A DNA stretch of 64,000 nt from a virus: positions 149,709 through 213,708 of the IMG/VR virus record IMGVR_UViG_3300045988_082442. One strand, written 5' to 3'. Below, one piece after another: positions 19,147 to 55,816 of the stretch (the stretch's first letter is position 1; every line of letters starts with the position of its first letter). The notes under the pieces were generated by a model, which worked only from the letters and a program-made list of their open reading frames with translations, did not search any database and was not told the origin of the DNA. The position numbers and the translations under genes were made by a program.

Positions 19147-21063
19147 ATGGGGTTTAGAGATAGAATGCAAAACTTTATGGAAAGCACATTCAAAGTCAGA
19201 ATAATACCTAAACAAACACCAAGAGAAGGAATGGCTATTACATCTGAAAAGAACTCTTTACCAAACCAATTAGATGAAGCTGTTGAATCTGGAAAAAGGA
19301 TTGACCTATCTGGATTAAGAGATTTAATGTCATTAAAAACAGATAGAAATGAGCAATATAAAGCTTACGAAGAAATGGTTGCAGATGGACGTATAGGTGC
19401 AGCTGTTGAGATGTATGCTAACGATACAGTACAACAATCTCCAGAGGGTAAAGTTATTTGGGTAGAAAGCGATAATGCTGATGTAGCATCCTATGGAAAT
19501 AAACTATTAGAAGATTTAGGTGTTGCACAAAATCTTTGGAGTTGGGCATACTGTTTATGGTTATATGGTGACGTGTATTTAGAGTTATTTGAAAATACTT
19601 CTACATTAGGAAATAAACCAACATTATTGACAGAACCAGTAAATCATAATGCTAATTTCCAAAAACAAGTTCCTATTGAAGGAGCATATCTTGAAAGATA
19701 TGTGGAAAAGGTTCCAAACCCAGCAGATGTATATGACCTACAATTCAAAGGTAAGACATCTGGATTTGTTAAATCAAGAGAACCATTAACACCAACATAT
19801 AAAAATAGAATAAACACATATAATGTTACATCATCAACTGAAAAGATAGATATATTATCTCCTATGAAGTTTGTTCATATATGTTTATCACCTAATATTT
19901 CAAGATACCCAGAGAAATTTAGTATAGTACAAGAAACACCAGATAATAAGAATGTGCATACAACTGGTGGAGATGCAATAAATGAAAATTCAGTAGGTGG
20001 ATCTACTTATACTGTATTAAGAGGACAATCAATGTTAGAGAATGTATATGGACCATATCAAGCATTGAAACTAAAAGAAGATAGTATATTATTAGAAAGA
20101 ATAACAAAAGCTTCCATTACAAGAATTATACAAATAGAGCTAGGTGATATGCCAGAAAGTCAAAAAGACAGGGTATTAAGGGATTTAAAGGAACAAATAG
20201 AACAACAACTTCAAATGAATAAATTTACTGGTGATATAAATAGCAGAGCAAGTGCTAACCCATCAGAGAATATAATCTACACAACTACTAAAAATGGTAA
20301 GGGTGTAATTAATACAGTAAATATTGGTGGAGAAGCAGATTTAGGTAATATAGAAGATATTACACAATCTGAGAATAAACTATATGGTGCTTTACAAGCT
20401 AATAAAGCAGCTTTAGGTGCAGATATGGATGGTACTGGATTATCAAATGGTGGTTCATTAACAGAATTAAACTCAATATATGCTAGAAGAATAGTTAGAG
20501 GGCAAACAGCACTAACATCTGGAATAACTACTTTAATAAATATATTTGCATTAAAAGAAGGACTTGCAGTTACTCATGTAAATAACTTTAGAGTTAGAAT
20601 GGTTAAACCAGTAACATCAGAAGATACAAGAAGAGATGATTTATTATCTAATAAGATTAGAAATGTAAGTGATTTACTAAATCTATTAAATGATAAAGAT
20701 ATAATTGACTCAGTATCAAGATTAAAGATTATAGCTAACTTAATGGTTAACTACCTATCTCAACAAGATATTGCAGATGTATTAAATGAAATACTTGAAT
20801 CTCAAGAAGCAGAAGTTGAAGATACAGATAAGGGAGATGGTGATGATACATTTGATGATATTACAACACATGGGGGTTCTGGAAGTAGTTTAAGAGAACC
20901 ACCATCAGGAGGGGAAGCACCTAGTAAACCAAATAGCCCAGATTTAGATACTGAAACAGATACTGAAACAGAACCTAATACGCCAGATTTAGAATCTAAT
21001 GTAGGAGCAGGTTCTACTGATGATATAGACTTATCAGAAATAGAAGGTAAAGATTTATTATAG
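19147..21063 (+). CDS. portal protein, T4 gp20-like
   Basis: By memory of T4 gp20: YKAYEEMVADGRIGAAVEMYANDTV and LKLKEDSILLERITKASITRIIQIELGDMP parallel the gp20 TYRNLM..AVSEIVSDAI and [30 protein letters not shown]. Confidence 0.8.
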   Translation: MGFRDRMQNFMESTFKVRIIPKQTPREGMAITSEKNSLPNQLDEAVESGKRIDLSGLRDLMSLKTDRNEQYKAYEEMVADGRIGAAVEMYANDTVQQSPEGKVIWVESDNADVASYGNKLLEDLGVAQNLWSWAYCLWLYGDVYLELFENTSTLGNKPTLLTEPVNHNANFQKQVPIEGAYLERYVEKVPNPADVYDLQFKGKTSGFVKSREPLTPTYKNRINTYNVTSSTEKIDILSPMKFVHICLSPNISRYPEKFSIVQETPDNKNVHTTGGDAINENSVGGSTYTVLRGQSMLENVYGPYQALKLKEDSILLERITKASITRIIQIELGDMPESQKDRVLRDLKEQIEQQLQMNKFTGDINSRASANPSENIIYTTTKNGKGVINTVNIGGEADLGNIEDITQSENKLYGALQANKAALGADMDGTGLSNGGSLTELNSIYARRIVRGQTALTSGITTLINIFALKEGLAVTHVNNFRVRMVKPVTSEDTRRDDLLSNKIRNVSDLLNLLNDKDIIDSVSRLKIIANLMVNYLSQQDIADVLNEILESQEAEVEDTDKGDGDDTFDDITTHGGSGSSLREPPSGGEAPSKPNSPDLDTETDTETEPNTPDLESNVGAGSTDDIDLSEIEGKDLL

Positions 21064-21512: not shown

Positions 21513-21541
21513 TTGACAAAATTTAAAACTTATAATAAAAT
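21513..21541 (+). promoter_or_regulatory. conserved early-type promoter cassette (-10 TAAAAT)
   Basis: Same spacer; precedes the acidic gene block. Confidence 0.7.
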
Positions 21542-21579: not shown

Positions 21580-21933
21580 ATGGAAGAAGTAAACATCTTA
21601 AATCCAGAGGATAAAGATTACTATGAAGGTAAACTATTTAGAGTTTGTATTTGGAGTGGTATGGGTTACAGTTTATACTCATACGATGTATATGCAAATC
21701 ACGAAGAAGAAGCTTTGAATCTTGCTGTTAAATATGCAGAAAGAGAAGGAGACCCAATTTTATTTAGCTGGGATGAAGTTGAACAAGATGCAGAGGAAAA
21801 TGATGAGGGTGATGATGCAGAATCATATATAGATGAATATTATGTTTATGTAGATGCAACTATGGAGGGAGCAGAGAATCCTTGGTTTATATTAAGGGAA
21901 AATTTAAGAATAGAAAGATTGGAGGAAAATTAA
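21580..21933 (+). CDS. acidic hypothetical protein, 117 aa
   Basis: Promoter 21513-21541 and GGAGG RBS upstream. Confidence 0.8.
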   Translation: MEEVNILNPEDKDYYEGKLFRVCIWSGMGYSLYSYDVYANHEEEALNLAVKYAEREGDPILFSWDEVEQDAEENDEGDDAESYIDEYYVYVDATMEGAENPWFILRENLRIERLEEN

Positions 21934-21934
21934 A

Positions 21935-23086
21935 ATGGCAAATGTAAATAAGATTGCAAAATTTCTAAAAGATAGTGTTGAAGAACTTATTAAAATAGAC
22001 GAGGGTTGCTGTGAGCTTAAACTTGATGATGACTTATCATTATTTGTAGGTTGGTCAGGTGGTTATGATAATCAACCAGACAATACAATAATTCAAAGCA
22101 AAAATGACCCAGAATATGCTATAAATGCTGGTATTAAATCAAACCATGAATATCTAAAAACAGACTTTGATTGGTTAAATTATCCTTATGAAGAGGAAAG
22201 CGGAGAAGTTTGGGATTCAGGAATAACAATATCTCCAAATGAAGATTATGAAAAAGATGCTCAATGGTTTGTAGACCAATATGCAGAAATAAGAACAGCA
22301 TTAGATAAAGGTGAAATAGTATTAGAAAGTAAGAAAGTAGAAAATGTATATAAAAGTGAAGATATAACATTTCAAGAAATAGAAGCAAGAATGGATAATG
22401 CTGAAGACTATGCAGATTTATATGAGGCAGCAAGTCTAATAGCAGATACAAGTTTAAGAATAGATGTAGAAAATCTAATTGGACAATGTGAAGATGATGA
22501 AGATGAAATAGACCAAGCAGTATCAATTATATGTAGTGATTTATTAGACGCTTATGCAAATGAAGAAAATGTAGAACATTTTGAAGAAAGCAAAAAAGTA
22601 GGAGAAAAGAAACTACAAGAAGATTGGGCAGAGGATGTTGACTTTGTTGCAGACTATGTATTAGCAAATGTAGATGGAAAAGACAATGTTGAATTTGAAG
22701 ATTTAAGAAATATCATACATGATGGTTTAAAAGAATTTTACCCAGAAATGAGTGAAGAAGAATTAGAAGATAAAGAATCTGATATAGAACCAGATATAAG
22801 AACTATATTATCTTTAAATGGTTATGGTACAGACTTTGTAACAGGGAATGTAACAACAGACATTGATAGTTTAGAAGAAGGCAAGAAGATAGAAGAAAAA
22901 GATACTAAACAAGAATATCAAGACTATTGTAAAGATTTAAAAATAGATGCTAATAAGAAATCTTCTGTAAATAAATTCTTAAATGACTATGCTCAAAATT
23001 ATACTAAAATGAATGGTGTGTCTAATCTACAATCAGAAATTGACAGAGTTAAGAAAGAACTAAGAGAAAGTATTACAAGAAAATAA
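21935..23086 (+). CDS. acidic multi-module protein, 383 aa
   Basis: Long ORF, start 2 nt after the upstream stop; D/E-rich. Confidence 0.8.
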   Translation: MANVNKIAKFLKDSVEELIKIDEGCCELKLDDDLSLFVGWSGGYDNQPDNTIIQSKNDPEYAINAGIKSNHEYLKTDFDWLNYPYEEESGEVWDSGITISPNEDYEKDAQWFVDQYAEIRTALDKGEIVLESKKVENVYKSEDITFQEIEARMDNAEDYADLYEAASLIADTSLRIDVENLIGQCEDDEDEIDQAVSIICSDLLDAYANEENVEHFEESKKVGEKKLQEDWAEDVDFVADYVLANVDGKDNVEFEDLRNIIHDGLKEFYPEMSEEELEDKESDIEPDIRTILSLNGYGTDFVTGNVTTDIDSLEEGKKIEEKDTKQEYQDYCKDLKIDANKKSSVNKFLNDYAQNYTKMNGVSNLQSEIDRVKKELRESITRK

Positions 23087-23156
23087 TAAATAATTACCAG
23101 TAAAGAGGATTTATATAAAATCCTCTTGAATGGGATTTATATAAAGGAGTAATGAT

Positions 23157-23450
23157 ATGGCAAAGCAAATTGTTGAATATAAAGTAAAAGACAGAGCTTC
23201 TTTAAATGAACTTGAAAATAAAGTAAAGAATGCCAGAAATAGTAACGATTATATCCTTATCAAGTTTGGTAGAAAAGGAGAATTTATTAGAGTAGATTTT
23301 GCAAAAGACCAAACTTATGGTGTTTCACATAACCTATACAATATGGAATTTATAGTTAAGTTAAATGTTATGACAAGACAATATAAAGTAGTAAATATTA
23401 GAAAGATTGCTGATTTCATATTTGATTGGGTTAATAGATTAAATCGTTAG
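23157..23450 (+). CDS. small basic hypothetical protein, 97 aa
   Basis: AAGGAG RBS. Confidence 0.75.
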   Translation: MAKQIVEYKVKDRASLNELENKVKNARNSNDYILIKFGRKGEFIRVDFAKDQTYGVSHNLYNMEFIVKLNVMTRQYKVVNIRKIADFIFDWVNRLNR

Positions 23451-23517
23451 GCGTCAGGTTCGGTTCTGTGCCAATTTAATTACATAGGTAATAAATTTAT
23501 ATAGGAGGTTAGTAAAA

Positions 23518-25569
23518 ATGGAAAATAATCAAAAAGAAATCATTGACATTGCATTAGATAGACTAAACCAAGAAGGATTATGGTTTACTACAAAAGAAGA
23601 TAAACTATATGCTAATGCAAAAGATTTATACAAACTAGATAAGTTTGGTGAACTAGAAGATAAATCAAAAGAAAGACTAATTGCTGAAGTGGAATCATAT
23701 TTAGGCGATGGAGCTACATTTATTATAGAAGCAGTAGACCAATGGATAGAGGATAATATTGCAGAAGGATTATTAGGTTATGTAGATACATTAGCTATGG
23801 ATTTTGAAATTCCAGAAGCAGTTGAAAATACAAATTCTTATTCTGAACAAGGTGTTGATAATTTAGAAACAACAGTTGCTAAAGAAGCAGACAAAGCTAA
23901 AAAAGAAGAAGGAAAAAAGATAGTGGAAGATAACGATAGAGATTTTGATGTATATCAACAATACATAATGAGTAATGTTTATTGTGATAATGAAACAATG
24001 ATGACAAGCCCAGAAATAATAGAAGATAATGCTGGTTTAATAGCAGAAGATGCTGCTAAAGAAGTTGTTGCACAAATATTTGATGGGAAAGAACCAGAGG
24101 GAATATATCAAGCAACATTAGAAGATTATACAGAAGAAATAAAAAGAGTTATCTTAGCAAATATTGACAGAATTGTATATCTTCAAAATACAGAACAAGA
24201 AGAGTTAAATGCAAAACTAACAGAAGCAAAAGCAGATGGTTATTCAAAACCAGTTAAAGTAGATGGTAAATGGTTTAGATATAATTATAAATATAATGAA
24301 TTAGAATATATAACACATTCTAGTAATGAATTTGGACCTATTGAAGTAATAGATAGTATAGGTGTTGACCCAGAAGATTGGAGAGAAGATAAAGACTTAT
24401 GTATTCAAAGATTTTTAGAAGATATTAAATCAGAAGAAGATGTAGATATATCAGAATTTGATAGTTTATTTCCTAAAAAATTAAAAGAAATAAGCAGTAA
24501 AGTAAATTGTATGCACTATGCTTATAATGAACCAAATGTATATAGGTATATGTTTACAAATAAGAAAGATGCTGAAGAAGCTAAATCTATTTTAGGTCAA
24601 TACGGAAAAGTAGAAGAAGTAGACCCTATGGAATTTTCTGAATATGAAGATAAGAAAGACTTAGATAAAGCAAAAGCATGTCTTGTAGTTACATTTAATT
24701 CTGGTGTTTTAACTGAAAGTAAGAAAGAGGAAGATGCTGGTAGTGATGATAATACATTATCAATGGATGTAATTAAATTCTTAAAGAATACAACATATAA
24801 AAATAAACCAGTTGCAGTATTAGATTATGAAGGTGTTGAAGATACATTTGGAAATGAATATATAGTTAGAATGAGAGTTTATATTGAAGAAGCAGATGGA
24901 GATTATAGACTTGTAATTAAAGGCTCTTATACTAATGAAAATGGAACACCTTTTGCTTGGAGCAATGGTGGTTGGGAAGATAAATCAGGTTACACAAGGG
25001 AATTTACTATAAATGAAGCTGAAGTAGAACAACTATGCCAAGCTATTATAACAAAAGACGAAGATGAATTATATGGTTTCCTTGAAACATACGATAACAA
25101 TTTCAGAGATGACTTTGCTTCTTATCTTGCAAAAGGTTATGACAAATATAGTGATGAAGGAAAGAAGGATAAATCTGTAAATTTTAATGAAGCCCTTGAT
25201 GTTAAATCTAACAGAAAGGCTCTAACAGAGGGGGCTAGAGAAAGACTTGATGAAAGAAATGAACAAAGTGCCTCTATCATAGATAAAGCTTTACAAGGAA
25301 TATCAGAAGATACATCTGATAAAGAAAGTGGAATAATAATTAAAACAAGTGAACTATTTAAGAAACTATCAGACAGGGGATATGACGTACAAGTAAGTTT
25401 TGATAATGGGGAAAGTACAAGTTCAATAGCTATTGGACAACAAGGTGCAAATGTTCTTATAACAATAACAGATGCTGACCAACCATTAAGAGCCTTTATT
25501 AGTGGAAATCTTGAAATAAATGATGACAGTTTAAAAATGATAAAGAGTATAATGGAGGTGCTTAAATAA
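23518..25569 (+). CDS. acidic giant protein, 683 aa
   Basis: Long ORF, AGGAGG RBS. Confidence 0.85.
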   Translation: MENNQKEIIDIALDRLNQEGLWFTTKEDKLYANAKDLYKLDKFGELEDKSKERLIAEVESYLGDGATFIIEAVDQWIEDNIAEGLLGYVDTLAMDFEIPEAVENTNSYSEQGVDNLETTVAKEADKAKKEEGKKIVEDNDRDFDVYQQYIMSNVYCDNETMMTSPEIIEDNAGLIAEDAAKEVVAQIFDGKEPEGIYQATLEDYTEEIKRVILANIDRIVYLQNTEQEELNAKLTEAKADGYSKPVKVDGKWFRYNYKYNELEYITHSSNEFGPIEVIDSIGVDPEDWREDKDLCIQRFLEDIKSEEDVDISEFDSLFPKKLKEISSKVNCMHYAYNEPNVYRYMFTNKKDAEEAKSILGQYGKVEEVDPMEFSEYEDKKDLDKAKACLVVTFNSGVLTESKKEEDAGSDDNTLSMDVIKFLKNTTYKNKPVAVLDYEGVEDTFGNEYIVRMRVYIEEADGDYRLVIKGSYTNENGTPFAWSNGGWEDKSGYTREFTINEAEVEQLCQAIITKDEDELYGFLETYDNNFRDDFASYLAKGYDKYSDEGKKDKSVNFNEALDVKSNRKALTEGARERLDERNEQSASIIDKALQGISEDTSDKESGIIIKTSELFKKLSDRGYDVQVSFDNGESTSSIAIGQQGANVLITITDADQPLRAFISGNLEINDDSLKMIKSIMEVLK

Positions 25570-26363
25570 TGAATATTACAGATTTAATTGGGGAAGATAA
25601 AGTTGATAGTATGATAAGAAATAACCCTTGCTTTGGTTTTGTAGAAAATTATACAATAGATGGTGATATTCTTACTATCAAATCAAAAATGTCAATTACC
25701 TATTATAGACTAAAAGAAGATAACGGAGTTATGTATGCCTATATGATAGGATTAGATGGTAGCCAATTAGGGGATGAATTTCCCCTTGATTGGCAAGAGG
25801 CAGAAGCTGATGGTTTAGTAGAAGAAAAAGAATTACCTGAAGATTTCAATGAAGATGAGTTAGATAGCAGAAAACAAAACCTACAAGAAAGTGTAAATTG
25901 GAGTTACTTTGACAAATTTAGAGATGTAATAGATAAATTTATGCCAGACCAAGGAGAGGGAGAAACTTATGCTTCTCAAATAGCAACTGCCATAAATAAA
26001 TTAGTTTATAAATGGTACAATGATGGTGATGTTTATGATAACAGCTGTTATTTAGAAGGATGGGCTAATGATTTATCTGACTATGCAAACTGGTTAGCAA
26101 AAAATGTTGACGGTGCAAAAGATATACTTGACAATATCTTTGAAGCTAGAAACGATAGTGATTACGAAAACATTTTAAAAGCACTTGCAGACAATTATTT
26201 ATCTATGGAATTTTTAGATAGAGCATCTGAAAAATCTAAAACTGGAAGCATTTATGATTGTGCTGGAGATTATAGTTTTGATGAACATAGATGGGATGAA
26301 GATGAGGACGACTATTGGGAAGATGATTATGATGAAGATGAGGAAGATGAGGAGGATTACTAA
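25569..26363 (+). CDS. acidic protein with DE/W-rich tail, 264 aa
   Basis: TAATG overlap with the upstream gene; tail WDEDEDDYWEDDYDEDEEDEEDY. Confidence 0.85.
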   Translation: MNITDLIGEDKVDSMIRNNPCFGFVENYTIDGDILTIKSKMSITYYRLKEDNGVMYAYMIGLDGSQLGDEFPLDWQEAEADGLVEEKELPEDFNEDELDSRKQNLQESVNWSYFDKFRDVIDKFMPDQGEGETYASQIATAINKLVYKWYNDGDVYDNSCYLEGWANDLSDYANWLAKNVDGAKDILDNIFEARNDSDYENILKALADNYLSMEFLDRASEKSKTGSIYDCAGDYSFDEHRWDEDEDDYWEDDYDEDEEDEEDY

Positions 26364-26950
26364 TGGATGAGGTTGCAGATTATATAAATAATATGGAACA
26401 AGATATGCCAGTAGAATATTCTACACTTCTATTCAATAATAAATGGGAGTATCTATTAGATGCAGCAAAAGATAGAAAGAGAGCAATAAATAAAGCATTT
26501 AAAGATAAAAGTTGTAGATACTCTGATTCTTTTCTAAGAACTCAACTAGACATAACAGAAAGAGCAATAGATGAGTTAAAGAGAAGAAGTAAGGAGGAAA
26601 CTATGAAAAAGGAAAATCTAAACGAAGCAGTTGATAAAGATATATTTGATGAAAGAGATAAAAAGATATTCCAAGATTTAAAAGATAAAGAAGAACCAGA
26701 AACTGTTTATGATTTACTTGTTGCAAGAATTGGACAAGAAATAACAGTTGGAGAATTAAATACAGTTCTACAAAGCATCTTTGGTAAATATGATGATATA
26801 TTCTTACTTGAAAATGATTTGTATAATGCAGATAGAGACCAATTACAAGATTTAGTAATTTGGGATGACGATGATGAATATACACTTACATTTAAAGTAA
26901 TTGATATGTTAGATGGAACTATTGAACTTACTGATGTCAATGTGGAATAA
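26363..26950 (+). CDS. acidic protein, 195 aa, with in-frame internal SD-ATG at 26603
   Basis: TAATG overlap; internal AAGGAGG plus 6 nt plus ATG at 26591-26605. Confidence 0.8.
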   Translation: MDEVADYINNMEQDMPVEYSTLLFNNKWEYLLDAAKDRKRAINKAFKDKSCRYSDSFLRTQLDITERAIDELKRRSKEETMKKENLNEAVDKDIFDERDKKIFQDLKDKEEPETVYDLLVARIGQEITVGELNTVLQSIFGKYDDIFLLENDLYNADRDQLQDLVIWDDDDEYTLTFKVIDMLDGTIELTDVNVE

Positions 26951-26979
26951 AACAAATACCATAAGTTTTGAAAAACCCC

Positions 26980-27008
26980 TTGACAAGATTTAAAACTTAT
27001 GGCATTAT
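26980..27008 (+). promoter_or_regulatory. early-type promoter cassette variant (TTGACAAGATTTAAAACTTATGG CATTAT)
   Basis: One spacer change, weaker -10. Confidence 0.55.
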
Positions 27009-27036
27009 TCATATAATAATTTAAGGAGGTAAGTGT

Positions 27037-29385
27037 ATGAGATTAGAAGAAAGTCATTTAGATGATTACCTTGCAGACAATGAATATGCAGTAACTTACA
27101 TAGACGGGGAAGGTAAAGAAAAACAGATTAAATTTAAACCTAATAAGAACACTAATATTGCAGGTATTCAAAAACAATTAGGTGAAACATATAAAGATTT
27201 CTTTAAGTTAAAAGAAATCAAAGGAGGAGAAAAAATGCAAGAAAGTAAAAATATTAAGGACTTAACATTAGCAGAAAGAATATTGTTAAATGCAATCAAG
27301 ACAGTAAATAGTGCTTATGATTTAGATAATGTAGTTTGCACAACGATACCATCTACTGGAGATGTATTAGTATCAACTAAAGATGGTAAGGATATATGCA
27401 CAATAGCAAGACATAAATTTGCAATAAATGGTGATGACACAGAACTTATTGATGAATTAAGATTTAATGGTTATTGGAAAGAACCAGACTTTGAGGATAA
27501 AGATACATTAGAGGAAGAAGTTTTAATTGAAAAAGATGGTAAATACGATACAATGGCATTTGCACAATGGCTACCAATGTCATTTACAGATTATGTTGAT
27601 AGTCATATTAAAGATGATTATGAAGAAATGGGAAGTAACTATAATAAGATAGAAAACTTTATTGAAGATTATGTATTACAATATCAAGAGGACCATTTAG
27701 ATGCAGAAGAGCAAGAAGAGTTTGAATATGATTTAGCAAAAGATTATGTTAGATATAAATTAGATAATATTGAAAAGAAGGAAGAAAAAGTATTAACATT
27801 ATCAAATGGTAAATTCAAAAAAGGAGACATATATGTAAATGGTAATGGTGCATTGATTAGAATAACAGATTATACAAAATCAGGAACACCTCAATATGAT
27901 ATAGGTATGCCAACAGATTTTGCAATGGGTACTCACACTTGTAAAGGAATGGCAAGTGATGAGGAATTACAAGCACTTTTAGATAATAATGGATATAGAA
28001 AGATAAGTGAAAGCAGGGAAATCAAAACAGAAGCATCTGCTTTATCAGCAAAAGACGAAGCAAATACAGTTATAGTAAATAAAAATCAATTTGGGTATAA
28101 TACAATAGCAATAATAATAGATGACACAAATAAAAGATACCAATTAGTATCTGGACAATCATTACCAAATGGAAGATATAAGAAAGCATCAAAGAAAGCA
28201 ATTAGACAAAAAGCTGAAGATTTAAAAGCATCTGGTTATACAGAAGTTAAAGGTCCTAATAGTTTAAGTGAATCAGTAGAACTAAAGACTGGTTCTGCTG
28301 AAGATATAATGAAAGGTAAAGCATTCTCTGTAAAAGATACAGAAATATTAAATACAGTTATGGATGCTTTAAAATCAGAATTAGGTCCAGATTGGGAAGG
28401 AAAATCATTGATAGATATTGAAGATATAACATTTAATACTATTGATGAATATTCAAAAGACCATAATGAAGATATAGACCCACAACCATACTATACACAA
28501 CTAAAGATGTTGATTGGTAGAAATGATTTATCAGAAGGTAAAGATACAAAATCAGATGAATTGAGTAAAGAAGATATTGTTAATTTATTAGATAATGGTC
28601 ATATCTTAACTGCTGGTAAAAAGAACTATACACCAACAGAGTTCTTATCTGAAAAAGGTAAGATTTACTTTAACAATAGAGAAATTAGCTTTGGTTGGCA
28701 AGAACATCCTAGCTTAAAAACTGCTGATGATTTAGCAGATTTCCTATTAAATTTACAAAAAGAAGGATTTGAAGTAACACATAGTGATAGAACAGAAAAG
28801 GACACAATTACTGAGAGTGCTTCAAAAGAAGATACACTAACAAAACTTGCAAATAAGATACTAGATTTCTATGGGGAAGATATGGGAAATTATTTTGATG
28901 AGATAGCAGGAAAAGAAGAAGATGTTTTTAATAATATACTTTCTTCACTAGAAAATAAAGATGAAAGTGATATAAATAAGTTTATAGAAGATATGGAAGA
29001 AGACGAAGGTAATGAAGATACTGTAAATCAACTTAAATCTATATTAAATGAATGTAAAGAAACACTTATAGAAAAAGATGAAGTAGATGAACCAGATACA
29101 GTAATTGAGTATGGTATATTATTTGAAAATGGTGATGATGAATTTTATTCAGATAAAGAAGAAGCTGATAAAAGATTTCAAGAAATTATAGATAATGGAA
29201 ACCTAGAAGATGTTGTTCAATACTATAAGAAAGAATGGATAAAAGGGGAAAAAGATTACGAAGAAGGAGATGTAGAGGTATATTACACAGAAGGTGATAT
29301 TCTACATGAAGAATTATTTGGTGCTTCTGACAAAGTATATCAAGATAGTAAAGAAAAAGGTTTATATTCAGAAAACTTAAAATAA
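27037..29385 (+). CDS. acidic giant protein, 782 aa, with in-frame internal SD-ATG at 27235
   Basis: Promoter 26980-27008; internal AAGGAGGAG plus ATG at 27221-27237. Confidence 0.85.
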   Translation: MRLEESHLDDYLADNEYAVTYIDGEGKEKQIKFKPNKNTNIAGIQKQLGETYKDFFKLKEIKGGEKMQESKNIKDLTLAERILLNAIKTVNSAYDLDNVVCTTIPSTGDVLVSTKDGKDICTIARHKFAINGDDTELIDELRFNGYWKEPDFEDKDTLEEEVLIEKDGKYDTMAFAQWLPMSFTDYVDSHIKDDYEEMGSNYNKIENFIEDYVLQYQEDHLDAEEQEEFEYDLAKDYVRYKLDNIEKKEEKVLTLSNGKFKKGDIYVNGNGALIRITDYTKSGTPQYDIGMPTDFAMGTHTCKGMASDEELQALLDNNGYRKISESREIKTEASALSAKDEANTVIVNKNQFGYNTIAIIIDDTNKRYQLVSGQSLPNGRYKKASKKAIRQKAEDLKASGYTEVKGPNSLSESVELKTGSAEDIMKGKAFSVKDTEILNTVMDALKSELGPDWEGKSLIDIEDITFNTIDEYSKDHNEDIDPQPYYTQLKMLIGRNDLSEGKDTKSDELSKEDIVNLLDNGHILTAGKKNYTPTEFLSEKGKIYFNNREISFGWQEHPSLKTADDLADFLLNLQKEGFEVTHSDRTEKDTITESASKEDTLTKLANKILDFYGEDMGNYFDEIAGKEEDVFNNILSSLENKDESDINKFIEDMEEDEGNEDTVNQLKSILNECKETLIEKDEVDEPDTVIEYGILFENGDDEFYSDKEEADKRFQEIIDNGNLEDVVQYYKKEWIKGEKDYEEGDVEVYYTEGDILHEELFGASDKVYQDSKEKGLYSENLK

Positions 29386-29388
29386 ATC

Positions 29389-29404
29389 ATAAAATATTAA
29401 TGAG
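29389..29404 (+). promoter_or_regulatory. late-type motif copy 8 (ATAAAATATTAATGAG)
   Basis: 52 nt before ATG 29456; its 3' end is the 5' arm of hairpin 29399-29431. Confidence 0.55.
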
Positions 29405-29434
29405 GGCTGTATATGTCTTGCAGCCCTCATTTTA
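29399..29434 (+). terminator. terminator-like hairpin overlapping late motif copy 8
   Basis: AATGAGGGCTG / CAGCCCTCATT 11-bp stem plus TTTT. Confidence 0.65.
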
Positions 29435-29455
29435 AATAAGATAGGAGGAATTATA

Positions 29456-32400
29456 ATGTCTAACAAGCTAATTGAAGCATTAGAAGTACATGATGAATTA
29501 AATCCAGTACTTTGGGATGGAATGGAATTAAAAGATGAAGTTAAAAATAAACTATTAGAGATTGCTGATACCTTTATAAAGGGGCTAGAATATCCAATAA
29601 ATGTAGCTGATATAAGATTTTTAGGTTCAAATGCTAGTTTTAATTACAATGAAAACTCTGATATAGACTTACATATTATTTCTAATTTTGATTTAACTTA
29701 CATAGATAAGAACATATTACAACTATTGTATAATTCTAGTAAGAATAACTTTAATAACAATCATGATATATCTATACATGGTATTCCAGTAGAAATTTAT
29801 GTTGAAGATATGAACAGTATGAATGCTACAAATGGTTCTTATAGTTTAATAAAAGATGAGTGGGTTAAGATACCAAAACCAATAGACTATGTCATTCCAG
29901 ATTATTCCAAAGAGTTAAATGATTATTTAGATGAATATAATCAAGTTATGAAAGATGGAACATTAGATGAAATAGAAGAACTAATAAACAGAATTTATAT
30001 TGGAAGAAAAGATGGTTTAGCAACTGAGGGGGAAGCAAGTATTGGAAACTGTGTATTTAAAGAATTAAGAAATAGAGATGTTATTAGTAATTTAAGAGAT
30101 AGATTACATGAATTAGAAAGCGAAGAACTTACACTTGAAAACAAGAAACTTGAGGAAGATGTAATTGACGATGTTGCTGTTGAAATGCAAGACGAACCAA
30201 CACCAGAGCAAATAAAAGAAAAAGAAGATGAATATACTGAATATATAGAAACACATATAAAAAATGTAAGAAAAGCTTATGATAGAATTGTAAAAGATTT
30301 AATCAAAGATGAATTTACTGATACACAACTAAAACAGTTAGAAGATAATTTAGAAGTACACGATAAAGATAAATATATACCATTTATGTTTGATGCTTAT
30401 AGAAGAGACCATTTACCAGTAAATGAAAAAGAAAAACAAGAAGCCAAAGAGGATTATGATATTGCCTGGGATTATCATAAGCATAATAATACTCATCATT
30501 GGGAATATTGGTTAAATAGTGCTGGTGAGTTTGCTCAAAACATAGATGGGGAAGCAATGAAACTTGCTTATGCAGAAATGTTTTGTGATTGGTTATCTTT
30601 TGGTTTTAGAAAGGAAGAAACATCAGCTACTGGTGAGTCTACTGAATTTAAAACATGGTATGGTGAGAGTGGTAAGAATATAAAAATACATCCACAATTA
30701 AGAGAATGGTTTGATGATAAAGTTGATACTATTATAAAATATATTGACGAGAATAAAGATACTATTTATGTAGATAAAGAACAAGAAGGAAAATGCTTGA
30801 CAAAATTTAAAAATTGTAATAAAATAGAAGAAGATGATAATATTAATAGAGAGGTAGGTGAAAATATTATGTCTAATGAAGATAAAGAAAAAGAATTAAA
30901 AAGAATGCAAGAATGGGTAAATAAAGTACTAGAAAACAGAAAACTTGAAGAAAGCTCTATGAGTAAAGTAGCAGAATATATTTCTCATTACCAAGTTGGG
31001 TTTATAACAGCTTTTAGACAAGGTAATACAAAAGCAGTAAATCAAGATAATAATCACTGGTTAAAGCTAGATATAATACAAGATTTAGATAAAACAAAAT
31101 TATCTTATATAAAAGTAGATGGTACTTATCCAGAACAAAAGAAGAATGCAGATGGTACAGACGCTGAAGGAGAATATGTGCAAATATTTGAAGAAACTTT
31201 TGCAGTAATAAATGACCAATATAGAAGTGATGACTTTATAAAAATTATGTGCAGTCTAGTTAAGAAATATAATCAAGATAGTACATTGATAGTATTCCCA
31301 CCATCAAATGATTCTAAAAAGATAGAGGATAATATAACAGCAGCTGAATATGATGGAGATGGTAATAAGAAAGCAACATATAAAGGTTTTACTGTTAGTG
31401 TTTATGACAAATATAAGGATAAAAATACTGCAGTTGAAGAATATTACACAAAAGTTGGAAACAAGAAACTAAGTTTCACTAATAGACAAGAAGTAAAAGA
31501 ATGTATTGATAAAGAACCAGAATATGATGTTTACACTTATAGATTAAAGAAACAAGGAAATCAAGGAAGTATGCTAGAATCCCAAAGAAAACATATCTAT
31601 GTAGAAGGATTATTAAATGAATTTAATAAGTTAGAAGAAAGTAGTATGTCAAGGATATTACAACTAATTCAACAAGGATATTTTGCAACAGTAAGTGCTG
31701 ATATTAGTATTATAAGATATGCTTTCTATGTAGCAAAAGATGAAGAATTTATTAAATTAGTTGATAATGATATTCAAAACTTTAATAAACTAGACAACCA
31801 AGAAGAAATAGAAAGTGAACTAAGCTCTAAATATGGTAAAGATTTATTGACATATAATAAAGATGCTTATAAGCAATTACAAGAATCTGTAAGAAATACT
31901 GGATTAGGATATGTTCCAATAGAAGGAGTTTATACTTACTCTGATAGCAATCAAGAAAGTACAGAACCATCATTGTTCATATCTATATCAAAAGACAAAC
32001 GAGCTTCATTTGAGGACTTTAAAAATACTATAATAGATATAGGTAATACTTACTATCAAGAAAGTGTTGTTATAGGCAATTCTGATAAGTCTGACAATGG
32101 GGATATAAAAGCAGATAATGATGGAAAAATAACTATTGATGCTTCTTTATATGATTGTGAAACAGGTTCAGTCATAGCATCAGAGTATTATGATACAGAA
32201 TATAATAAAATTAAGTTATCTGATTTTTCAGGTTTCTTATCAAGATTAGTTAAAGATAAGAATAAAGCATTTGCAATGTATAAATTTGATGAAAGTGTAG
32301 AAGTATTTAATGGTATTGATACATCTTCATATACAAAATGTTTACAAGCAGGTGGAGTACATGAAAGATGGAAACAACATATAAACCCAGTAGCAAATAA

Positions 32401-32986
32401 AATGACAGAAAAATATTCTAAGCTACAAGAAGATTATGATGACTATAGAAGTAAAGTTAAGTTTGATTTGGAATATAGAGTAATAGCTCCTATTACTGTA
32501 AAACAAGAAGATGAATTTGACACATACGGAAAATATGACCAAGAAATGGACATTGATATAGATAGTCTTTATGAATCTTATGAAGATGTAGCTAAACAAA
32601 TTCAAGACTTAGTTGATGATGAAGATTTATTAAAAGAAATCTTCCCTAATGTAGGTTTAGGTAGAGTATATGTTGGAAATATTGAACTTGATGAAGATAA
32701 ACTTGATTTTGATATTGGTTTCAGTAGTATAGTAGACCCAGTAGAGAGAGGTAATGATATAAAACTTGATGAAGATGAGATTAAAGAACAAATAAAAGAT
32801 TTAGTTATTTGTATCATTGAAAATGTTGATTATGTATCAGCAAAGCAAGTATATACAGAATATACTGGGGAAGTAGATGAGGATGGAGAACCTATTGAAG
32901 AAGAAATTACTTCTGATAATGAAATAAGCTATTCTATAAATCTTGATAAATCAAAAGATATTGAAATACACAAAATAAGTGAATAG
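29456..32986 (+). CDS. 1176-aa composite protein: Pol-beta-type nucleotidyltransferase domain, HD/HHW-motif domain, then duplicated acidic modules
   Basis: LGSNASFNYNENSDIDLHI fits G[SG]-x10-DxD; HDKDKY...HNNTHHWEYW...EMFCDW; two KLEESSMS(K/R)-led paralogous modules. Confidence 0.8.
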   Translation: MSNKLIEALEVHDELNPVLWDGMELKDEVKNKLLEIADTFIKGLEYPINVADIRFLGSNASFNYNENSDIDLHIISNFDLTYIDKNILQLLYNSSKNNFNNNHDISIHGIPVEIYVEDMNSMNATNGSYSLIKDEWVKIPKPIDYVIPDYSKELNDYLDEYNQVMKDGTLDEIEELINRIYIGRKDGLATEGEASIGNCVFKELRNRDVISNLRDRLHELESEELTLENKKLEEDVIDDVAVEMQDEPTPEQIKEKEDEYTEYIETHIKNVRKAYDRIVKDLIKDEFTDTQLKQLEDNLEVHDKDKYIPFMFDAYRRDHLPVNEKEKQEAKEDYDIAWDYHKHNNTHHWEYWLNSAGEFAQNIDGEAMKLAYAEMFCDWLSFGFRKEETSATGESTEFKTWYGESGKNIKIHPQLREWFDDKVDTIIKYIDENKDTIYVDKEQEGKCLTKFKNCNKIEEDDNINREVGENIMSNEDKEKELKRMQEWVNKVLENRKLEESSMSKVAEYISHYQVGFITAFRQGNTKAVNQDNNHWLKLDIIQDLDKTKLSYIKVDGTYPEQKKNADGTDAEGEYVQIFEETFAVINDQYRSDDFIKIMCSLVKKYNQDSTLIVFPPSNDSKKIEDNITAAEYDGDGNKKATYKGFTVSVYDKYKDKNTAVEEYYTKVGNKKLSFTNRQEVKECIDKEPEYDVYTYRLKKQGNQGSMLESQRKHIYVEGLLNEFNKLEESSMSRILQLIQQGYFATVSADISIIRYAFYVAKDEEFIKLVDNDIQNFNKLDNQEEIESELSSKYGKDLLTYNKDAYKQLQESVRNTGLGYVPIEGVYTYSDSNQESTEPSLFISISKDKRASFEDFKNTIIDIGNTYYQESVVIGNSDKSDNGDIKADNDGKITIDASLYDCETGSVIASEYYDTEYNKIKLSDFSGFLSRLVKDKNKAFAMYKFDESVEVFNGIDTSSYTKCLQAGGVHERWKQHINPVANKMTEKYSKLQEDYDDYRSKVKFDLEYRVIAPITVKQEDEFDTYGKYDQEMDIDIDSLYESYEDVAKQIQDLVDDEDLLKEIFPNVGLGRVYVGNIELDEDKLDFDIGFSSIVDPVERGNDIKLDEDEIKEQIKDLVICIIENVDYVSAKQVYTEYTGEVDEDGEPIEEEITSDNEISYSINLDKSKDIEIHKISE
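30797..30825 (+). promoter_or_regulatory. early-type promoter cassette embedded in frame inside ORF 29456..32986 (-10 TAAAAT)
   Basis: AAAATGCTTGACAAAATTTAAAAATTGTAA TAAAAT, including the upstream AAAATGC context of the intergenic copies. Confidence 0.55.
30869..32986 (+). CDS. possible nested 705-aa C-terminal product started from an internal promoter, RBS and ATG
   Basis: Full promoter copy 30797-30825, GAGGTAGGTG RBS and ATG 30869, in frame with 29456..32986. Confidence 0.4.
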   Translation: MSNEDKEKELKRMQEWVNKVLENRKLEESSMSKVAEYISHYQVGFITAFRQGNTKAVNQDNNHWLKLDIIQDLDKTKLSYIKVDGTYPEQKKNADGTDAEGEYVQIFEETFAVINDQYRSDDFIKIMCSLVKKYNQDSTLIVFPPSNDSKKIEDNITAAEYDGDGNKKATYKGFTVSVYDKYKDKNTAVEEYYTKVGNKKLSFTNRQEVKECIDKEPEYDVYTYRLKKQGNQGSMLESQRKHIYVEGLLNEFNKLEESSMSRILQLIQQGYFATVSADISIIRYAFYVAKDEEFIKLVDNDIQNFNKLDNQEEIESELSSKYGKDLLTYNKDAYKQLQESVRNTGLGYVPIEGVYTYSDSNQESTEPSLFISISKDKRASFEDFKNTIIDIGNTYYQESVVIGNSDKSDNGDIKADNDGKITIDASLYDCETGSVIASEYYDTEYNKIKLSDFSGFLSRLVKDKNKAFAMYKFDESVEVFNGIDTSSYTKCLQAGGVHERWKQHINPVANKMTEKYSKLQEDYDDYRSKVKFDLEYRVIAPITVKQEDEFDTYGKYDQEMDIDIDSLYESYEDVAKQIQDLVDDEDLLKEIFPNVGLGRVYVGNIELDEDKLDFDIGFSSIVDPVERGNDIKLDEDEIKEQIKDLVICIIENVDYVSAKQVYTEYTGEVDEDGEPIEEEITSDNEISYSINLDKSKDIEIHKISE

Positions 32987-32991
32987 AAATA

Positions 32992-33018
32992 AAAGACAGG
33001 TTATAACCTGTCTTTTTA
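32992..33018. terminator. bidirectional terminator between convergent genes
   Basis: AAAGACAGG..CCTGTCTTT palindrome flanked by A run and T run. Confidence 0.75.
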
Positions 33019-54260: not shown

Positions 54261-55790
54261 ATGGGAAAGTCAATGATAATTGAAGCTCAAGATTCTTCTC
54301 TTGTATATGAAAAAGGACAAAAAGGTGTTCTTGGAAAACTTAGTGGGGTATTTGCTAATTTCCGTACTGGCACTAGAAATGGTGGTAGATTATACAATGA
54401 GGAGCTTATTGATAAAAGAATATTTGGAAATGAAGATGTAATGGAAGCTCTTGAAACAAGAACTCTATTTGGTGAATTAGACCACCCTGAAGGAGATAGA
54501 TGTGAAACTTTAGCTCAAAATGCTGCAGTATCTATAATAAAATTAGAAAAAGATGCTGAAGAAGGAGTTGTAAAAGGGGAAGCATTAATTCTTGATACAC
54601 CATCTGGTAGAACTTTAAAAGCATTAGTAGATAGTGGAGCAAAAATGGGAATATCAAGTAGAGGTATAGGAGAAGAAATTATAAGTAATGGTCAAACAAT
54701 AATAGACCCAGATACATACGATTTCATAACATTTGATATAGTTGTTACACCAGCAAATAAAGGTGCAAGACTTTCATTAGTTGAAAGTAAACAAAAAGAT
54801 ACAATGCTATATAAATCAATTAAAAAAGAAATCAATGAGTGTATAAGTTTAAATCAGCTAGACCAATTAAGTAAAGTTGTTGAAAATAACATCCCAGTTG
54901 GTAAAGCAAGATTAAAGAAACTTATTGAAGATAAGATAACTACACTTACATCTGATGAAGATATTACAGATAAAAGTGAAGATATACAAGGTAATGAAGA
55001 TATTATACCTAACAATGTTCAAGAGGAACCAGTTGAAAAGACTGATAAACTTGAGGAACAAAAACTTGTAAACAATGAATTACAAGATGCATCTGCTAAA
55101 CTATTAGAGGAAAATAAATCTTTATTAGAAAGAGCAGAAAAAGCTGAAAGAAACAATAAGCTATTGCAAATTAAACTAAAAGAAAGCAGAAAGTTAGAGA
55201 AGAAATCAGAAGTATCTTTAAATGAATCTAAAACAGATAAAGAAGAAATCATTAGAAAACTTAAAAAGATAAATGAAAGTAAACTTAAAAATGTAGAAGG
55301 AACATATAAAGATAAGATTAAATCTTTACAAGAAAGCTTAAAGAATAGTGAAATTGAAAATAGTAAGTTACTTGAAGCAAACAAACTACTAGGAAAGAAG
55401 TCAGTTGAATTGAATAACAAATTAGTAGAATCTAATAAGTTAAACGAAGAAACTAAATCTAAACTAGAAGAAGCACAATCTAAATTAGTTGAGAGTGCAA
55501 ACCAAATTAAAATGTTAGAAAATAAAGTTGTAGAAACTAAAGATGCTAACAAATCAAAGCTTGAAGAAAATAGAAAGCTTGAAGAAAGTAAGATTTTAAA
55601 TCTACAAAATCAATTAGAAGAAGCTAGAAATCAAATATCACAACTAACTGAAGCCAAAGAAAGAATAGCTAAGTTACCATTTAATATAACACAAGCAAAT
55701 CTTAAATATGAAGGCTTACAGCATGAAATAAGTATAAGTGATGATGATAAAGCATTATTCGATACAATGGTTGAAATGAACCAAAAATAA
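54261..55790 (+). CDS. T4 gp21-like prohead core protease fused to a coiled-coil scaffold domain
   Basis: GGRLYNEELI...LFGELDHP...KMGISSRGIGE parallels the remembered T4 gp21 NKRLYPKRIL...LGELNHP...GVSSRGLGS. The C-terminal 300 aa or so is K/E/L/N coiled coil. ATG 54261 is preferred by RBS. Confidence 0.8.
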   Translation: MGKSMIIEAQDSSLVYEKGQKGVLGKLSGVFANFRTGTRNGGRLYNEELIDKRIFGNEDVMEALETRTLFGELDHPEGDRCETLAQNAAVSIIKLEKDAEEGVVKGEALILDTPSGRTLKALVDSGAKMGISSRGIGEEIISNGQTIIDPDTYDFITFDIVVTPANKGARLSLVESKQKDTMLYKSIKKEINECISLNQLDQLSKVVENNIPVGKARLKKLIEDKITTLTSDEDITDKSEDIQGNEDIIPNNVQEEPVEKTDKLEEQKLVNNELQDASAKLLEENKSLLERAEKAERNNKLLQIKLKESRKLEKKSEVSLNESKTDKEEIIRKLKKINESKLKNVEGTYKDKIKSLQESLKNSEIENSKLLEANKLLGKKSVELNNKLVESNKLNEETKSKLEEAQSKLVESANQIKMLENKVVETKDANKSKLEENRKLEESKILNLQNQLEEARNQISQLTEAKERIAKLPFNITQANLKYEGLQHEISISDDDKALFDTMVEMNQK

Positions 55791-55816
55791 TTAAAAATTG
55801 AATGGAGGAATTTATA

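Follow-up and report, generated by a model that had tools for sequence, protein, structure and literature searches.

Acidic modular proteins encoded beside a phage portal gene carry linkers that resemble prohead-protease sites

The DNA analysed here, referred to as the window, is a 64,000-nucleotide stretch of the IMG/VR virus record IMGVR_UViG_3300045988_082442 (positions 149,709 to 213,708). It is a phage structural region of ~29% GC that holds portal, tail and tail-fibre genes, a gene for a Peptidase_S77 (S77) protease with a scaffold, and a Gp23-family capsid gene. Our subject is a block of eight close-packed open reading frames (ORFs) on the + strand at 21580-32986, which follow the portal gene and a conserved ORF of 140 amino acids (aa), and the recurrent linker peptide that joins the modules of the proteins they encode. 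A first-pass annotation made from the letters alone had described all eight as rich in Asp and Glu save a small basic one (23157..23450), and had proposed that they are capsid cargo cut by the prohead protease. The coordinates and the acidity are as described: seven of the eight proteins are strongly acidic, with D+E of 21-28%, pI of 4.05-4.54 and net charges of -22 to -106, compared with a pI of 9.9 for the basic protein and D+E of 7-21% in the remaining proteins of the window. Coordinates count from the first letter of the window; a related phage with a comparable block is called the relative, and individual loci carry L numbers. The genes are as follows.

19147..21063, + strand: T4-type portal gene (PF07230, 3.7e-30), directly upstream of the block
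21082-21504: 140-aa ORF after the portal gene, conserved in relatives (69% identity)
21580..21933, + strand: block gene 1, 117-aa acidic protein (pI 4.05, D+E 28%); the relative's homologue is 38% identical; no family match
21935..23086, + strand: block gene 2, 383-aa acidic modular protein, whose modules recur duplicated and reordered in the relative's 786-aa protein
23157..23450, + strand: 97-aa basic protein (pI 9.9), 74% identical in the relative and better conserved than its acidic neighbours; no family match
23518..25569, + strand: block gene 4, 683-aa acidic protein, variable in the middle, with conserved modules at the N-terminus (1-125) and the C-terminus (553-683)
25569..26363, + strand: block gene 5, 264-aa acidic protein, fused in the relative's 454-aa protein to the module of the following gene
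26363..26950, + strand: block gene 6, 195-aa acidic protein, whose C-terminal 114 aa match the end of the relative's 454-aa fusion at 64% identity
27037..29385, + strand: block gene 7, 782-aa acidic protein of ~8 small modules (AlphaFold2 (AF2) model mb96f22ee5665); 29 mosaic homologues
29456..32986, + strand: block gene 8, 1176-aa polyvalent protein, with the same core architecture in homologues at L007 (1252 aa) and L015 (1004 aa)

The junctions between modules repeatedly read h-x-E-[SGN]-K-K-[LIV]-x-E-[SAGD], with simpler forms of the type [L/I]-x-E↓[S/A/G], where the arrow follows the P1 Glu of a candidate cleavage site. Depending on the pattern used, the linker E-[SGN]-K-K-[LIV]-x-E occurs ~12-16 times in the 7.7 thousand aa of block proteins from the two phages, 4-6 times in the block of the window and 8-10 times in that of the relative, and the rest of the window (14 thousand aa) has three loose K-[KT]-h-x-E matches, none of them in linker context. 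The linker is found in most of the diverged homologues and at the distant loci L012, L015 and L016, and in several diverged homologues it directly precedes a module that begins 'SHLDD...'. It joins unrelated modules in different proteins, a distribution that inheritance of one segment cannot account for. Its codons vary synonymously, pointing to selection or conservation at the level of the peptide; AAG is commoner than in the block overall, and 39-mers average 55% nucleotide identity. On these grounds we rejected a DNA recombination joint or a slippery sequence as the origin of the linker. In the five block proteins of 195 to 782 aa, the linkers and sites are as follows, with conservation given as the fraction of aligned homologues that keep the residue and n as the number of recurring homology breakpoints.

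22316..22345, + strand: linker IVLE↓SKKVEN in the 383-aa protein; the relative has IILE↓NKEKK at the aligned position
22577..22624, + strand: multiple-site linker HFEE↓SKKVGE↓KKLQE↓D in the 383-aa protein, where a segment homologous to the relative stops
22868..22900, + strand: double linker SLEE↓GKKIEE↓K in the 383-aa protein, where another homology segment stops
23899..23931, + strand: double linker KKEE↓GKKIVE↓D in the 683-aa protein; K128 and E131 invariant (E131 16/16); top-recurring breakpoint (n = 14)
24214..24231, + strand: site KLTE↓AK in the 683-aa protein; P3 14/14, P1 14/14, P1' 13/14; AF2 low-confidence segment 222-239; breakpoint n = 11; score 11.5 on the scaffold-site matrix described below
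24706..24726, + strand: site VLTE↓SKK in the 683-aa protein, at the start of AF2 low-confidence segment 400-431; breakpoint in two homologues; not conserved in the wider alignment
25219..25239, + strand: site ALTE↓GAR in the 683-aa protein, just upstream of the conserved C-terminal domain; P1 Glu 12/13, and 66/~75 in the wide family
25878..25901, + strand: site NLQE↓SVNW in the 264-aa protein; the same module follows MDE↓SVNWSYYDK in an 817-aa protein of the distant relative L012
26615..26638, + strand: site NLNE↓AVDK in the 195-aa protein, beginning its conserved C-terminal module
27037..27054, + strand: N-terminal MRLEE↓S of the 782-aa protein, a linker remnant; P1 Glu 16/16
27232..27249, + strand: site KMQE↓SK in linker 57-71 of the 782-aa protein; E69 15/16; AF2 low-confidence segment
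27517..27537, + strand: linker EVLIE↓KD of the 782-aa protein, of the recurrent (D/E)EE[LV]LIEK type; E165 14/16; AF2 low-confidence segment 151-171; breakpoints n = 9 to 11
28000..28038, + strand: linker KISE↓SREIKTE↓AS of the 782-aa protein; E332 18/18; [LI]TE↓A in relatives; AF2 low-confidence segment 325-333; top-recurring breakpoint (n = 17)
28261..28281, + strand: site SLSE↓SVE of the 782-aa protein; P3 18/18, P1 16/18, P1' 15/17; AF2 low-confidence segment 412-430; breakpoint n = 10
28525..28545, + strand: site DLSE↓GKD of the 782-aa protein; P1 10/12; AF2 low-confidence segment 496-567
28804..28824, + strand: site TITE↓SAS of the 782-aa protein; P1 10/12; AF2 low-confidence segment 573-595

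The AF2 model of the 782-aa protein (mean pLDDT 65.9) contains ~8 confident small domains separated by segments with pLDDT < 50, and all five [LI]xE[SAG] sites (P1 at residues 5, 325, 412, 500 and 593) fall into these segments (hypergeometric p 0.007, with draws from Glu positions only). Among 18 diverged homologues, conservation is 0.85 for the P1 Glu of these sites and 0.44 for other Glu residues (p 0.002), P3 and P1' are conserved too, and the best-conserved Glu residues of the protein (E332, E5, E69, E412 and E165) are nearly all linker residues; further linkers of this protein contain KMQE↓S and EEVLIE↓K. The module that MRLEE↓SHLDD introduces at the N-terminus in the window lies internally in relatives, after KKL[IVT]E↓SHLDD and with further modules ahead of it. 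The first-pass annotation had read such motifs as apparent module boundaries, an idea borne out both by this placement and by the fusing and splitting of genes at linkers in relatives, and each motif that it quoted is indeed present (MRLEES, KLEESSMS twice, VLTESKK, KLTEAK, ISES, LSES, LSEG, ITES, LQES and MSNKLIEALEV). Foldseek searches with the model gave no match in the PDB at E <= 1e-3, and in BFVD the modules resemble only small stand-alone uncharacterised phage proteins.

For the 683-aa protein the model is of low confidence (mean pLDDT 56.6), with the N-terminal 147 residues unresolved and three sites unplaced. Sites 236, 400 and 571 lie in linkers, and 236 and 571 are conserved; K128, E131 and E236 are invariant or near-invariant columns of the family, and the KLTE↓AK site was graded top with its matrix score of 11.5. 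The non-conserved sites 458 and 500 lie inside folded elements and look like chance matches, as residue 810 of the 1176-aa protein probably is. The C-terminal module of the 683-aa protein occurs in 78 representative clusters, nearly always at the C-terminus and on proteins of 95 to >1000 aa. At the ALTE↓GAR site that precedes it, P3 is Lys in ~37% of the wide family, and this site may be a structural helix cap instead of a cleavage site. The 97-aa basic gene always lies directly upstream of a 683-family gene, in the window and at L003, L015, L016 and L012, and its product could be an adaptor or chaperone for the 683-aa protein. We speculate that either the C-terminal domain of the 683 family or the adjacent basic protein serves targeting.

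The motif [LI]xE[SAG] is in genuine excess in the block, by a modest factor of ~2- to 2.5-fold. If its proposal were right, the first-pass annotation had argued, the motif should outnumber composition-matched shuffles, and it does: 25 occurrences compare with 10.1 expected, at z 4.8 in global shuffles (1 of 5000 reaching 25) and z 4.95 in local shuffles of 30 aa (0 of 2000 reaching 25). A contingency test over every Glu of the block, which discounts separate preferences for L/I at P3 and for S/A/G at P1', still gave 25 against 14.4 (odds ratio (OR) 2.6, p 9e-4), and the same test on the other proteins of the window gave 27 against 23.4, that is, no enrichment. Control motifs with Asp at P1 or with the order reversed were flat within the window; in T4, an Asp in this position prevents processing. 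A position-specific scoring matrix (PSSM) built from the scaffold sites only found an excess of strong matches in both blocks (window 4 against 0.6, relative 6 against 0.8; z 5.1 and 5.4) and little elsewhere. In the relative, Asn is more frequent at P1' in scaffold and linkers alike, which is suggestive of co-variation, in numbers too few for statistics.

The scaffold sites belong to the head genes further downstream, which are as follows.

54261..55790 (ORF from 54228), + strand: prohead protease (domain at about residues 12-200, counted from 54228) fused to a coiled-coil scaffold tail (Peptidase_S77, PF03420, 41 bits at a cut-off of 27; phrog_207, 6.7e-30)
55176..55655, + strand: scaffold tail with 11 K-[LI]-x-E-[SA] sites, ~7-19 residues apart
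55802..56029, + strand: exon 1 (75 aa) of the gp23-like capsid gene, a propeptide with ALVE↓A and KLIE↓S

The gp21-like protease of the first-pass annotation thus corresponds to an S77 match above cut-off, its count of eight [LI]-x-E-S sites in the scaffold is exact, with five [LI]xEA sites to be added, and the two sites that it named in the capsid N-terminus, ALVEA and KLIES, are both there. Altogether, the protease/scaffold protein has 13 [LI]xE[SA] sites where 2.1 are expected (z 7.6). The signature recurs in the scaffold tails of the relatives L009 and L012 (12 sites and z 5.0 in L012) and, as L-x-E, in the scaffold of Listeria phage LIS04; the S77 scaffold tail of L012 even contains KLTE↓GKKLEE↓A, which is the block linker itself. 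T4 gp21 cleaves after L/I-X-E and dices core proteins at several sites, and its LIE-9 site is resembled by the protease N-terminus MGKSMIIE↓A encoded here (PMC9026906). By analogy with its family, and judging from its own scaffold sites, the protease probably has the specificity [LI]-x-E, the kind of site that it evidently uses on the scaffold tail, its own N-terminus and the capsid propeptide. No second protease candidate was seen in the window, and the [SAG]xE motif of phiKZ and SPN3US type is not enriched in block or scaffold. Disordered linkers that are conserved beyond the domains they adjoin need a sequence-specific reader, and the S77 protease is the only candidate in view.

The last and largest protein of the block shows what such linkers separate.

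29462..29482, + strand: candidate N-terminal leader MSNKLIE↓AL; relatives have MNRLNE↓A and MSNKKIEE↓A
29474..30133, + strand: nucleotidyltransferase (NTase)-like module, aa 7-226 (phrog_36119, 9.5e-36; NTP_transf_2 weak, 1.4e-3)
30128..30160, + strand: double linker LTLE↓NKKLEE↓D, aa 225-235, separating the NTase-like module from DUF5662
30224..30721, + strand: DUF5662 module, aa 257-422 (PF18907, 3e-22 and 7.8e-24)
30938..30967, + strand: site RKLEE↓SSMSK, aa 495-504, directly ahead of the first S-AdoMet-lyase-like module
31001..31297, + strand: S-AdoMet-lyase-like module 1, aa 516-614 (PF23780, 33 bits at a cut-off of 28 when scanned alone; 7.7e-13 with the whole protein)
31625..31654, + strand: site NKLEE↓SSMSR, aa 724-733, ahead of the second S-AdoMet-lyase-like module
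31853..32092, + strand: S-AdoMet-lyase-like module 2, divergent, aa ~800-879 (PF23780, 22.9 bits, below the cut-off of 28; phrog_12788, 1.2e-10)

With at least two domains of disparate activity (NTase-like, DUF5662 and two S-adenosylmethionine (SAM)-lyase-like), the 1176-aa protein qualifies as a polyvalent protein. Stand-alone homologues of the NTase-like module in phages Cr30, S-CRM01 and Molly and in Lak phages stop exactly where the TLE↓NKK linker starts, and they have unrelated N-termini in place of the leader, which is weak evidence for the leader given that the three phages carrying it are closely related. At the position of NKLEE↓SSMSR the relative has KVTE↓NKKLEE↓SNLS, which gives the top PSSM score, 16.8. 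The two modules that follow KLEESSMS align weakly to each other (E 0.055), and the last 216 residues form an acidic tail with no match. The first-pass annotation had recognised no family in the block apart from an NTase/HD-like head on this protein; the NTase-like head stands (phrog_36119), and the DUF5662 and the two SAM-lyase-like stretches had been overlooked. The other six acidic proteins gave no family match in PHROG or Pfam, searches of the PDB by sequence with the three largest block proteins gave nothing usable, PADLOC found no meaningful defence system, and an all-against-all BLASTP within the block detected no paralogy. Pfam and PHROG scans of the window's proteins likewise detected neither an ArdA (PF07275) or Ocr-like domain nor an LPD domain.

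Comparison between phages reveals how mobile these modules are. Gene order (portal, block, two reverse genes, tail genes) is kept at L003/L007 and L015, and across three IMG/VR contigs with 79% identical portals the modules of the block are fused, split, duplicated and reordered. Homologues of the 782-aa and 683-aa proteins form 52 clusters, purely metagenomic and on contigs of up to ~210 kb; each covers 7-64% of the query and all differ in length, which amounts to extreme mosaicism. Further domains appear in these mosaics, namely LPD11 (3e-32), ArdA (4e-8, in homologue P0027 only), DUF5661 and DUF7678, and at L012, where the NLQE↓SVNW module sits in a different protein context as MDE↓SVNW, genes for an SNF2 helicase and an LPD11 protein neighbour the homologue.

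Two classes of promoter-like sequence bear on when the block is expressed. Class A (TTGACAAAATTTAAAACTTATAAT, 24 nt; TTGACA, 17 bp, TATAAT-like) is near-invariant and of perfect sigma70 type, kept with minor differences in relatives, with 8 matches against 0 expected and positions at 15570, 16132, 16805, 21513, 26980, 30797 and 35691 on the + strand and 33495 and 60373 on the - strand. It is found ahead of the block and of small unannotated ORFs, and both reverse-strand genes (33016-33417 and 59449-60333) are under its control; the HNH/homing-endonuclease gene at 57655 has only a looser TTGACC/TATAAT match. Class B (TAAAATATTAATGA) is present in 13 exact copies, all intergenic and on the + strand, with positions at 1290, 5262, 7511, 10342, 16066, 18610, 29390, 33562, 36259, 53614, 54175 and 61469; it precedes the portal operon, the protease, the tail genes, the 1176-aa gene and a number of large unknown genes, in several places overlaps or comes after a terminator hairpin, and stands before the pair of 97-aa and 683-family genes at L015 and L016. 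Class A is probably early and class B late, the latter being likely a late promoter for a phage-specific factor. The elements within and around the block are as follows.

21513..21541, + strand: class-A sigma70-like promoter (TTGACA, 17 bp, TAAAAT) upstream of block gene 1, conserved at L007 (871) and L015 (2945)
26980..27008, + strand: class-A variant upstream of the 782-aa gene; the L015 equivalent is at 9945
29390..29403, + strand: class-B box TAAAATATTAATGA ahead of the 1176-aa gene, also found at 18610 (portal operon) and 54175 (protease), conserved at L007 (9932) and L015 (12371)
29399..29435, + strand: intrinsic terminator that follows the 782-aa gene and overlaps the class-B box (stem of 13 bp, -21.5 kcal/mol, z -5.0, then UUUU)
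30797..30825, + strand: class-A copy inside the 1176-aa gene, followed by a purine stretch like a Shine-Dalgarno (SD) sequence and the in-frame Met472 (30869)
32991..33016: bidirectional terminator at the end of the block

From the class-B box at 18610 to the start of the block we found no terminator, and to judge from these elements the block is probably expressed both early and late. A start at Met472 could give an early 705-aa isoform whose start lies 28 residues ahead of the LEE↓S site and of the SAM-lyase modules; this isoform stays speculative because the internal promoter is not conserved at L007.

Taken together, these results lead us to favour a model, to which we assign a probability of about one half, whereby the block is a hypervariable cassette of 'beads-on-a-string' polyvalent proteins, that is, chains of small, independently folding modules whose linkers copy the scaffold sites of the prohead protease, and which are loaded into the prohead, cut into their modules and injected with the DNA. 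The block proteins would be present at the time of prohead assembly, made from transcripts that start at class-B promoters, from read-through of the portal operon and probably from the earlier sigma70-type promoters. The chains would be loaded into proheads, where the S77 protease would cut them at the exposed linkers to release separate modules, and these would stay in the head, enter the next host with the DNA and act before any phage gene is expressed. Incorporation, cleavage, retention and injection are steps that we infer. Judging by their family matches, the recognisable modules would have counter-defence or nucleotide-directed activities (two SAM-lyase-like, one NTase-like, one DUF5662). 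The first-pass annotation had suggested DNA-mimic or anti-defence cargo; anti-defence is plausible from the two SAM-lyase-like modules and from ArdA and LPD11 in homologues, and DNA mimicry finds no ArdA or Ocr domain in the block to go with its acidity. If the linkers are cut, then fusing, splitting or reordering modules would be nearly neutral, which would explain the extreme mosaicism. More tentatively still, we speculate that a clade of uncultured phages with T4-type heads (contigs of up to ~210 kb) uses a true polyprotein strategy of counter-defence, in which modules are strung together by E-S-K-K-L-x-E-S, a copy of the scaffold site, a protease acting in trans dices the chains inside the capsid, the effectors are co-injected, and the linker serves as an evolutionary 'plug' that speeds shuffling.

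By analogy, the block would be a hybrid of the logic of T4 internal proteins, the multi-site processing seen in phiKZ and SPN3US, and the concept of polyvalent proteins. The likeness to T4, with its gp21 and its internal proteins IPI, IPII, IPIII and Alt, lies in the Peptidase_S77 family and in cutting after Glu in L/I-x-E, a specificity that is inferred here, as well as in the L/I-I-E site in the protease's own N-terminus and in a scaffold with many sites (PMC9026906); on the favoured model it would extend to anti-restriction cargo that is packaged, injected and quick to diversify. The injected internal proteins of T4 are diversified anti-restriction factors (PMC3012670, PMC12373910). They are small, basic and of a single domain, and removal of a 10-residue N-terminal capsid-targeting sequence (CTS) is their only cut, Alt being cut at both ends; block proteins have no sequence homology to them or to Alt. 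In phiKZ, 201phi2-1 and SPN3US, many large head-internal proteins are cut after Glu by the gp21-like proteases gp175/gp245, often at several copies of the motif, and in SPN3US Ser is preferred at P1' (PMC10052503). The motif there is S/A-x-E, in contrast to L/I-x-E here; cutting there takes off N-terminal propeptides of 20-254 aa instead of splitting functional modules from one another; and the head module is not the T4-like set of gp23, gp20 and scaffold-fused protease seen in the window. PHROG, Pfam and tblastn searches detected no homology between block proteins and the inner-body or ejection families of these phages.

Polyvalent proteins were described by Iyer et al. (2017) as phage-encoded mosaics of 2-15 disparate domains that are extensively shuffled and predicted to be delivered with the DNA; processing was proposed to occur via zincin-like metallopeptidase domains that they contain or, in rare cases, via an assemblin-like peptidase at the C-terminus, and no linker motif was described (PMC5512222). 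The block shares with them LPD11 and ArdA in its homologues and SNF2 neighbours; its proteins differ in having no internal peptidase domain and in a linker that matches the sites of a separately encoded S77 protease. SAM lyase defeats type I restriction-modification and BREX (bioRxiv 10.1101/2023.02.27.530186). The S-AdoMet_lyase domain PF23780 links the block to the SAM lyase of T3 (gene 0.3), and its strong acidity is reminiscent of DNA mimics such as T7 Ocr and ArdA, the latter present in one mosaic homologue. T3 SAM lyase, Ocr and ArdA are, however, small stand-alone proteins that are the first to be expressed after injection and are not packaged, whereas in the block two SAM-lyase-like modules form part of one 1176-aa chain, whose gene has a late-type promoter box. 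The Dar proteins of P1 are reported to be large anti-restriction proteins that reside in the head and are injected, their incorporation being tied to head morphogenesis (PMC12810830, PMC9024508). They have no homology to the block and belong to another head and protease system. We know of no modular linker architecture in Dar proteins.

Several observations weigh against the packaged-chain model. Unlike the T4 internal proteins, the block proteins are of 117-1176 aa, very acidic and multi-module, and the candidate sites lie between modules. Short CTS-like leaders are present in only two of the seven acidic proteins (MRLEE↓S of the 782-aa and MSNKLIE↓A of the 1176-aa protein), and these, although their form is kept in two relatives, do not resemble the T4 CTS. 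Taken by itself, the relative's block is weakly enriched in the motif (contingency p 0.077). Linker Glu does not have a hydrophobic P3 significantly more often than domain Glu does (OR 1.5, p 0.19), and some sites in the first half of the linker have Lys at P3 (KKTE↓N), a misfit to L/I-x-E. Unique homology breakpoints are not significantly near strict-motif sites (4/20, p 0.38; 5/14, p 0.18). Across the wide homologous family, enrichment is as strong for the Asp control as for the Glu motif; since shared domains produce this equal enrichment, we rejected family-wide motif counts as independent evidence. The distant L016 homologue sits among nucleotide-metabolism genes rather than head genes, and neither megablast with the block nor tblastn with the 782-aa and 683-aa proteins found a cultured relative among 50,697 phage records. 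Finally, the class-A promoters upstream of the genes at 21580 and 27037, conserved in relatives, suggest early expression of much of the block. This last case is weakened because no terminator was detected from the box at 18610 to the block, a strong terminator closes the unit no earlier than after the 782-aa gene, and class B precedes the gene pair at L015 and L016.

On the main alternative view, which we consider less likely than the packaged-chain model, the proteins are early cytoplasmic factors of counter-defence or host takeover that are never packaged: the block would be an early-gene island read by the host RNA polymerase from sigma70 promoters, acting by SAM depletion and possibly DNA mimicry, with linkers that are structural connectors or sites of another protease, encoded by the host or by an early phage gene. 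The class-A promoters, which are conserved at L007 and L015 and common to the reverse-strand accessory genes, would fit such an island, as would the strong terminator that closes a unit after the 782-aa gene, the internal class-A copy that, with its SD-like stretch and Met472, could yield an early SAM-lyase isoform, the metabolic neighbourhood of the L016 homologue, and the scarcity of an N-terminal CTS. Ocr is an early, unpackaged protein, as is the characterised SAM lyase. What early cytoplasmic action leaves unexplained is why disordered linkers have an invariant Glu, a hydrophobic P3 and a small P1' that copy the scaffold sites, and we saw no further protease candidate in the window. Late-type class-B boxes are also at work in the block, at the 1176-aa gene and at the pair of 97-aa and 683-family genes of L015 and L016, nothing blocks read-through from the portal operon, and early synthesis is in any case compatible with later packaging.

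The resemblance of the linkers to scaffold-tail repeats could also mean that the block proteins are themselves auxiliary acidic scaffold or core proteins, comparable to T4 gp22, gp67 and gp68, which build or size a large prohead, are diced at L-x-E and expelled before packaging, and leave fragments without function in the next cell. The acidity, the multiple protease-type sites and the adjacency to the portal gene agree with this, and in T4 the core proteins are cleaved to several pieces that mostly leave the head (PMC9026906). We regard it as improbable: enzyme-like and anti-restriction-type modules (SAM lyase and NTase-like, with ArdA and LPD11 in homologues) are foreign to such a role, the block proteins are modelled as globular multi-domain chains rather than coiled coils, a dedicated scaffold is already present as a fusion to the protease, and the block is hypervariable between phages with a 79% identical portal whereas a size-determining core would be expected to be conserved. 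Least probable in our judgement is that the motif excess is a by-product of a composition rich in E, K, L and S together with helix capping, and the linker a neutral connector inherited by descent within a family. The enrichment is indeed only ~2-fold, the tests of breakpoint proximity, of hydrophobic P3 and of the relative's block alone were not significant, the Asp control is enriched in the wide family, and ALTE↓G may be a helix N-cap. Yet shuffles that preserve local composition still give z 4.95, the Asp and reversed controls are flat in the window, which is free of paralogy, unrelated modules of different proteins are joined by the linker, and the linker Glu is better conserved than domain residues.

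If the packaged-chain model is true, it would join three ideas that have so far been separate, namely polyvalent proteins, capsid-packaged anti-restriction cargo and prohead-protease specificity, and polyvalent proteins would gain a mode of processing that is predictable from sequence, a trans-acting S77 protease plus a recognisable linker. In that case, the linker motif could help to divide hundreds of unannotated giant phage ORFs into their effector modules, providing a catalogue of anti-defence candidates, and could help to predict capsid cargo; a linker combined with a targeting module could serve to load and release several foreign proteins in engineered T4-type capsids. Should the proteins instead prove to be early and cytoplasmic, the conserved linker would still need explaining and would point to an unknown system of processing or recognition.

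We also note several features outside the block. An ORF of similar size to the 140-aa ORF follows the portal gene in Listeria phage LIS04 too, and the 140-aa ORF may be a conserved head-assembly accessory gene. The gp23-like capsid gene is split by a group I intron (56004-56335, between 55802-56029 and 56370-57542; Rfam RF00028, 77 bits at a gathering cut-off of 50, E 6e-20), which a whole-window scan at the gathering cut-off had missed; the capsid gene of the relative L009 is uninterrupted (460 aa) and reads ...YTQVSNVA↓GIRKDLFNMTT... over the exact intron junction, marked here by the arrow. Three homing/HNH endonuclease genes lie in the structural region (8750-10318, 18017-18562 and 57655-59361; phrog_3339 at 5e-103 and 2.6e-55, phrog_59 at 4.6e-48), one immediately ahead of the portal operon and another right behind the intron-containing capsid gene. 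Five large proteins encoded within 1356-12939 (1031, 251, 734, 346 and 846 aa), mostly behind class-B boxes, have no PHROG match, nor does the 1031-aa protein, the one of the five scanned against Pfam, have a match there; they are presumably novel virion components. Finally, two giant tail-fibre-like proteins (44756-48601, 1281 aa; 48676-52392, 1238 aa) have an identical internal peptide, LELELAKLNWAQKTVNE, in common (aa 211-227 and 735-751), suggestive of segment duplication or exchange.

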